In this document: piece by piece, positions 15,704 to 15,779 of the stretch | Numbering within the stretch: position 1 is the first letter of the stretch | Layout of the letters: every line of letters begins with the position of its first letter | NCBI RefSeq assembly: GCF_030013595.1 | Contig: NZ_CP122768.1 | DNA length: 64,000 nt | Direction: 5' to 3' (one strand) | Origin: Escherichia coli | Lineage (GTDB): Bacteria > Pseudomonadota > Gammaproteobacteria > Enterobacterales > Enterobacteriaceae | The notes under the pieces: generated by a model | What the model was told of the DNA's origin: nothing | Databases searched by the model: none | The model's input: the letters and a program-made list of their open reading frames with translations, nothing else | Program-made: the position numbers and the translations under genes

Positions 15704-15740
15704 AGGTTCTTTCAACCATCTGATACTGAAGATTTTTATT

Positions 15741-15770
15741 GCCGGATAAGGCGTTTGCGCTGTATCCGGC
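15741..15770. repeat. REP-like palindromic unit between convergent topB and gdhA
   Basis: GCCGGATAAGGCGTTTGCGCTGTATCCGGC, with GCCGGATA/TATCCGGC arms. Confidence 0.5.
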
Positions 15771-15779
15771 ACAATTGTC

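Follow-up and report, generated by a model that had tools for sequence, protein, structure and literature searches.

The ynjI-less topB–gdhA junction of an Escherichia coli chromosome probably represents an old and common empty haplotype

In the stretch of Escherichia coli DNA analysed here (64,000 nucleotides, hereafter the window), the genes topB and gdhA converge directly upon each other, without the ynjI gene that lies between them in K-12. It is likely that the window carries an old and common 'empty' haplotype, in other words an allele descended from chromosomes that never had the ynjI insertion, and not the product of a recent deletion. This reading is drawn from the arrangement in outgroups, the likeness of the spacer and of the TopB tail to those of ynjI-less relatives, the AT-richness and regulation of ynjI, and the counts of TopB tail types in complete genomes. 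As such, the missing gene is ordinary strain-to-strain accessory-gene variation of a kind already known, ynjI being present in published lists of strain-variable genes (e.g. PMC10304320). For annotation, the absence of ynjI should be read neither as an error nor as a lesion of this strain; it marks a non-K-12 lineage with the common empty haplotype. The locus also offers a compact example of E. coli accessory-gene polymorphism in which whole haplotypes (tail, cargo and REP set) are exchanged by way of conserved flanks, in contrast to the plain gain or loss of a segment.

The features of the locus are collected in Table 1. The 76-bp gap between the genes, as first read from the letters, proved exact to the base, since the TAA of topB occupies 15701–15703 and the stop codon of gdhA 15780–15782, leaving 15704–15779 as spacer. 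The genes selD (12694–13743), topB and gdhA are all intact in the window, and searches with tblastn and blastn gave no match to ynjI anywhere in the 64 kb, spacer included. The spacer itself is made up of 36 bp of AT-rich unique sequence on the topB side, a 32-bp palindrome and 8 bp on the gdhA side. It had been described as consisting largely of a REP-like palindrome, which is right as to the REP hairpin and a mild overstatement as to its share, the palindrome covering only 32 of the 76 bp.

Table 1. Features of the topB–gdhA locus, in window coordinates.
Feature	Position	Strand	Remarks
topB (DNA topoisomerase III), 651 aa	13748..15703	+	ORF list; Pfam Toprim, Topoisom_bac
topB divergent 3' end: basic C-terminal tail, 'empty-haplotype' allele	15494..15703	+	divergence from K-12
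topB–gdhA convergent spacer, 76 bp; corresponds to the ynjI site of K-12	15704..15779	.	
Single Y-type REP (palindromic unit) hairpin	15740..15771	.	36 nt past topB stop, 8 nt from gdhA stop
GTTT in REP loop, target duplicated by IS1397 in other strains with the same spacer	15753..15756	.	
gdhA (NADP-specific glutamate dehydrogenase), 447 aa	15780..17123	-	ORF list; Pfam ELFV_dehydrog, ELFV_dehydrog_N

Comparison with MG1655 bears out the statement of the sequence-only reading that ynjI stands between the two genes in that strain: gdhA (b1761), ynjI (b1762; 346 aa, DUF1266) and topB (b1763) follow one another directly, with 1284 bp, not about 76 bp, between the stop codons of the outer two. 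Both chromosomes have the same flanking genes in the same order and orientation; unlike MG1655, the window has neither ynjI nor the BglJ-RcsB promoter region, 76 bp replacing 1284 bp. That the window is not MG1655 sequence, as had also been supposed, is evident from flanks that are 96.4–97.3% identical. The difference extends into topB, which diverges from K-12 by 14% and then 37% in its last two 100-bp bins as against 0–8% elsewhere, such that the last ~45 TopB residues constitute a different allele. Indeed, TopB is identical to that of K-12 up to about residue 609 except for D357G, the proteins being 651 and 653 aa long, and over the last 135 nt of the tail the identity falls to 62%, with the basic core KKK...PRKR..KK kept in both. 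GdhA differs from that of K-12 by three substitutions, one of them A443S, five residues from its end, and the place adjoining gdhA is occupied in K-12 by a two-REP BIME of other REP types. Homology of the spacer to either K-12 intergenic region was considered and rejected, the resemblance being only the generic one of REP to REP. When the window was tested for K-12-type flanks and ynjI remnants, such as a ynjI-deletion derivative of a K-12-like allele would leave, none was found. On alignment, then, the difference between window and K-12 is a haplotype replacement and not a clean indel.

An inverted-repeat search resolves the palindrome into arms of 14 nt each (15740–15753 and 15758–15771), 4 nt apart, giving the imperfect 32-bp palindrome TGCCGGATAAGGCG-TTTG-CGCTGTATCCGGCA. 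It agrees with the degenerate consensus pattern of Y-type REPs with 0 mismatches, where 0 chance matches are expected (100 shuffles). A second Y-type copy lies elsewhere in the window, at 36132–36161, with 3 mismatches to the degenerate pattern. For the 86-nt region around the spacer REP the folding energy is −26.5 kcal/mol when the + strand is folded and −24.1 kcal/mol for the − strand, the z-scores being −4.1 and −4.0 respectively; 0 of 200 shuffles folded as well. With the Y-type REPs, or palindromic units, of E. coli BIMEs it shares the ~32-bp form GCCGGATAAGGCG...CGC..ATCCGGC, the extragenic position between convergent genes, the occurrence of further copies in the window and the targeting by IS1397; it differs from them in being a lone REP and not part of a two-REP BIME. 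In other words, the element is an imperfect palindrome of the ~30–40 bp class with the enterobacterial consensus, and is extragenic, dispersed and IS-targeted, as REPs are; REPs of the same type occupy the equivalent topB–gdhA spacers of many Enterobacteriaceae. Binding of gyrase, DNA polymerase I or IHF, and stabilisation of mRNA 3' ends, are further properties by which REPs are recognised. A known RNA family was rejected for the spacer, the sole Rfam match, to naRNA4, being sub-threshold (30 bits against a gathering score of 59.5); we take naRNA4 to be itself a REP-derived element.

The loop of this hairpin is also the target of an insertion sequence. In strain GPEC1337 (L087:4098-5529; L numbers denote the loci that were compared) the left junction of an IS1397 ends at window position 15756 and the right one restarts at 15753, the element thus occupying the loop of the hairpin between two copies of GTTT, a 4-bp target duplication. 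IS1397 is annotated in the topB–gdhA interval of strains 746, SCU-109, CE2050, ECamp083 and MS14384 as well. Insertion of IS1397 has been reported to be specific for REPs (PMC1525189), and its presence in the loop of the palindrome therefore provides independent confirmation that the palindrome is a true REP.

Lying in the 3' untranslated regions of both convergent mRNAs, the hairpin could be expected to slow 3'-to-5' exonucleases and to attenuate convergent read-through, by analogy with other REPs. It is not a canonical Rho-independent (intrinsic) terminator, since the stem is followed by ACAAUUGU on the + strand and AUAAAAAU on the − strand, without a U tract; a simple scan of 15400–16100 likewise returned 0 terminator-like sites. 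A REP within ~15 nt of a stop codon can reportedly stall terminating ribosomes and lower expression, an effect attributed to work by Liang, Rudd and Deutscher (2015). Because the present REP begins only 8 nt past the gdhA stop codon, it may damp the termination of gdhA translation in the same manner, and, as the REP of K-12 also lies 8 nt past the gdhA stop, such a feature would be common to both haplotypes.

The distribution of junction states was surveyed in 5,426 complete E. coli genomes (Table 2). With the empty state in some 28% of them, the arrangement is not peculiar to the strain from which the window comes. All 17 of the uninterrupted matches that were sampled were single 676-bp pieces, and seven genomes are 100% identical to the window junction over 676 bp. 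The locus has, moreover, more than two states: the empty spacer, two alleles of ynjI, Hsp70/J-domain cassettes and IS1397 insertions. A 544-bp spacer in strain HH97 (L002:3001-3544), a RefSeq 'complete' genome, was examined as an intermediate haplotype and rejected as homopolymer-ridden assembly noise over ynjI. In the sequences compared, ynjI is linked one-to-one with a different allele of the TopB C-terminal tail, and every cargo state goes with a tail allele of its own. K-12-type tails were counted in 3,490 genomes, as against 3,506 with the K-12-type ynjI interval; tails of this type are in no surplus over ynjI, and hence the complete genomes show no sign of K-12-type chromosomes from which ynjI has been deleted. 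The named strains with the empty state belong presumably to phylogroups B2 or D and the named ynjI carriers to A, B1 or E, a split which fits the acquisition of ynjI on the A/B1/C/E side.

Table 2. States of the topB–gdhA junction in complete E. coli genomes.
State	Genomes	Share	Examples
Uninterrupted junction as in the window	1,514 (676-bp query), 1,494 (151-bp query)	~28%	UTI89, O25b:H4-ST131, APEC O2:K1:H4, O102:H6
K-12-type ynjI interval	3,506 matched, 3,457 near full length	~65%	K-12 derivatives, O157:H7, O111:H8
HscC-like Hsp70 + J-domain/Sel1 cassette	~350 with ≥95% best match, 61 full length	~6%	K-15KW01, ATCC 25922
Empty spacer with IS1397 in its REP	up to ~36 (junction split in two places)	<1%	GPEC1337, 746, SCU-109, MS14384

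The empty state extends well beyond E. coli. In the topB neighbourhoods of 80 species-representative genomes (E. fergusonii not among them), topB and gdhA are directly convergent in about 50 of the 80 loci, across 3–190 bp that mostly hold one or two REPs or a BIME. This convergent set includes E. albertii, Escherichia sp. E1V33, a representative labelled E. coli, Salmonella diarizonae and many Citrobacter, Enterobacter and Kosakonia, and among the species representatives ynjI was met only in Escherichia sp. MOD1-EC7003 (1 of ~56). The spacer of the window can be aligned position by position with that of E. albertii, and it aligns as well with the spacers of Escherichia sp. E1V33 and E. coli SCPM-O-B-8794 (the loci compared being L005, L006 and L008), the REP keeping its place throughout. 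The REP, which had been proposed to mark the junction of an insertion or deletion, is instead a resident of the ancestral spacer, being similarly placed in E. albertii and other ynjI-less Escherichia. The window's TopB tail, furthermore, shares 81–82% identity with the tails found in E. albertii and E. coli SCPM-O-B-8794, both of which lack ynjI. The empty arrangement is the norm in other Enterobacteriaceae. In K-12, ynjI is an accessory gene for a DUF1266 membrane protein, and the ynjI haplotype of the ~65% of E. coli is a separate one, to which a particular TopB tail allele and a particular gdhA-side BIME belong. From these comparisons we infer the polarity of the event at the deeper nodes of the tree.

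Other arrangements were seen in the same survey. In Cedecea, Buttiauxella, Serratia, Yersinia, Rahnella, Hafnia and Ewingella (L056, L058, L060, L062, L063, L065, L071-L084) topB is followed by a ynjH homologue without gdhA between them, which means that gdhA is itself variable at this position across the Enterobacterales. Inserts of 0.3–5.7 kb separate topB and gdhA in other genera (L030, L039, L044, L050, L052, L055, L059, L067, L069), and in Klebsiella michiganensis (L048) topB is followed by an ORF that is a putative integrase, as judged by a look at its N-terminal sequence only. In E. albertii NBRC 107761 (L008) an in-frame TAG stands ~80 nt before the end of topB (..PSSGE*KKKASPRKR..), which, if it is no sequencing error, would remove ~27 residues of the basic tail.

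The GC content of ynjI is 41.3%, against 53.3% for gdhA and 55.1% for topB, and it is reported to be repressed by H-NS/StpA and activated by BglJ-RcsB (PMC3950696), a pattern of regulation that we read as typical of acquired genes. The YnjI family is small, forming 8 clusters at the 90% identity level and 83 at the 50% level with E ≤ 1e-3, and every close orthologue that could be placed (58–91% amino acid identity) lies between topB and gdhA, the hosts being a cryptic Escherichia, Pseudocitrobacter faecalis and two unidentified Enterobacteriaceae (60% and 58%). Within E. coli there is a second allele (L089:5001-6032; also L088, L090 and L091), whose protein is 68% identical to K-12 YnjI; its flanks are 0–4% diverged from K-12 and the gene body 24–47%, one breakpoint lying ~110 bp inside the gene and the other at its stop. 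On a metagenomic contig of P. faecalis (L092:4875-6141) an 80% orthologue forms a clean insertion that begins 3 nt past the topB stop, in flanks that are 98–99% identical to those of the type strain (L022:9960-10106). The type strain is empty at the site, and the same present/absent polymorphism thus exists in another genus. The BIME that separates ynjI from gdhA in K-12 has a homologue in the resident BIME of Pseudocitrobacter, and the last 15 residues of K-12 TopB are identical to those of an uncultured Pseudocitrobacter.

Since close orthologues occupy the same site across genera, ynjI could alternatively be ancient there and have been lost many times. Lateral spread through the conserved flanks is favoured over this old and often lost state because ynjI occurs in 1 of ~56 species representatives and is persistently AT-rich. 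With either polarity, the window's allele belongs to the empty lineage.

Of the two alternatives put forward by the sequence-only reading, an insertion of ynjI specific to some lineages fits the evidence better than the loss of ynjI by this strain. Loss could be framed in more than one way. A ynjI-bearing ancestor might have exchanged its locus with an 'empty' donor by recombination from the 3' end of topB to the 3' end of gdhA, an allelic replacement in which the short, sharply bounded block of divergence (~15494 to 15790) in otherwise ordinary flanks would be an imported segment; the locus is recombinogenic, as the breakpoints of the second ynjI allele attest. The import of the ynjI haplotype on the K-12 side explains the sharp boundary equally well, however, and the empty allele is found in UTI89, ST131 and O102:H6, in agreement with the outgroup arrangement, such that replacement in this direction seems unlikely. 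Still less credible, to the point of being highly improbable, is a recent deletion in the strain itself or among close relatives of it, such as recombination between REPs might cause, with one REP left as a scar. REPs/BIMEs do flank ynjI on the gdhA side in K-12, and REP–REP recombination is a documented route to rearrangement (PMC1525189), but the REP of the window differs in type from those of K-12, a deletion cannot produce 37% divergence in the last 100 bp of the TopB tail, the identical junction recurs in ~1,500 genomes, and K-12-type tails are not in excess of ynjI. An assembly artefact, whereby a collapse or mis-join removed ynjI, may practically be dismissed: bad assemblies of the locus exist, HH97 among them, yet the junction is base-for-base identical to those of many independent complete genomes, and the best matches of the window over 14 kb are two pig isolates at ~100.0% identity.

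The third kind of cargo at the site is a chaperone cassette. That of K-15KW01 (L004:1829-7868) spans 6 kb at 42% GC, and cassettes of this kind consist of a gene for a 566-aa Hsp70, 43% identical to K-12 HscC, followed by genes for one or two proteins of ~648 aa, each with both a J-domain and Sel1 repeats. The version in ATCC 25922 (L086:4317-9000) has one J/Sel1 gene and a 266-aa hypothetical protein; a relationship of the latter to DUF1266 was rejected, there being no Pfam match, and one pairwise comparison having yielded no more than a local match of 49 residues (E = 5e-4). Cassette strains have a third, very divergent allele of the TopB tail, with ~45–50% nucleotide identity to the others. 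The same families as in both types of cargo occur together in the K-12 hscC-djlC-ybeU-ybeT-djlB-ybeR-ybeQ cluster (L085:3571-11394), namely DUF1266 (YbeR, YbeU), Hsp70 (HscC), J-domain (DjlB, DjlC) and Sel1 (YbeQ, YbeT). That cluster lies at a different chromosomal position, however, its families are absent from the window's spacer, YnjI has no BLASTP-level similarity to its YbeR or YbeU, and the J and Sel1 parts, unlike those of the cassette, are not fused in one protein. The idea that YnjI might be what remains of a J-domain/Sel1 cassette protein was also considered and rejected for want of similarity (E > 1), and in three contexts the remote YnjI homologues (~30% identity) had no consistent Hsp70 or J-domain neighbour.

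In that one pair of core genes brackets alternative cargo, the locus resembles the regions of genome plasticity, or integration hot spots, of bacterial chromosomes. It is unlike integration hot spots in having no integrase, tRNA or att site and in the small size of its cargo (1–6 kb); no genes for site-specific recombination are annotated in the E. coli variants examined. Cargo exchange appears instead to proceed via homologous recombination in the conserved flanks. A wider proposal, namely that topB–gdhA is a multi-allelic, cross-genus hot spot kept polymorphic by selection, its cargo being a conflict or stress module (anti-phage or envelope-related, for instance) that spreads through the conserved flanks, is at this stage unlikely. 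Among the PADLOC anti-phage models none matched YnjI, and the cassette proteins gave weak, repeat-driven or marginal matches only; a literature search found no account of topB/gdhA as a hot spot. The multi-allelic, cross-genus behaviour of the site is a modest lead, and the single-site occurrence of ynjI, its divergent allele, the Hsp70/J cassette and the linkage to TopB tails are leads for work on DUF1266 proteins and HscC-type chaperones.

Two further observations were made on the cassettes. In Klebsiella spallanzanii (L028) a 77%-identical Hsp70 is found with a J-domain protein ~4 kb downstream of topB. An element of ~128 bp (L004:7681-7812) that lies between topB and the Hsp70 gene of the K-15KW01 cassette has 1–6 matches at 90–92% identity in almost every E. 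coli genome and, by its size, could be an intergenic repeat of the ERIC/IRU type.
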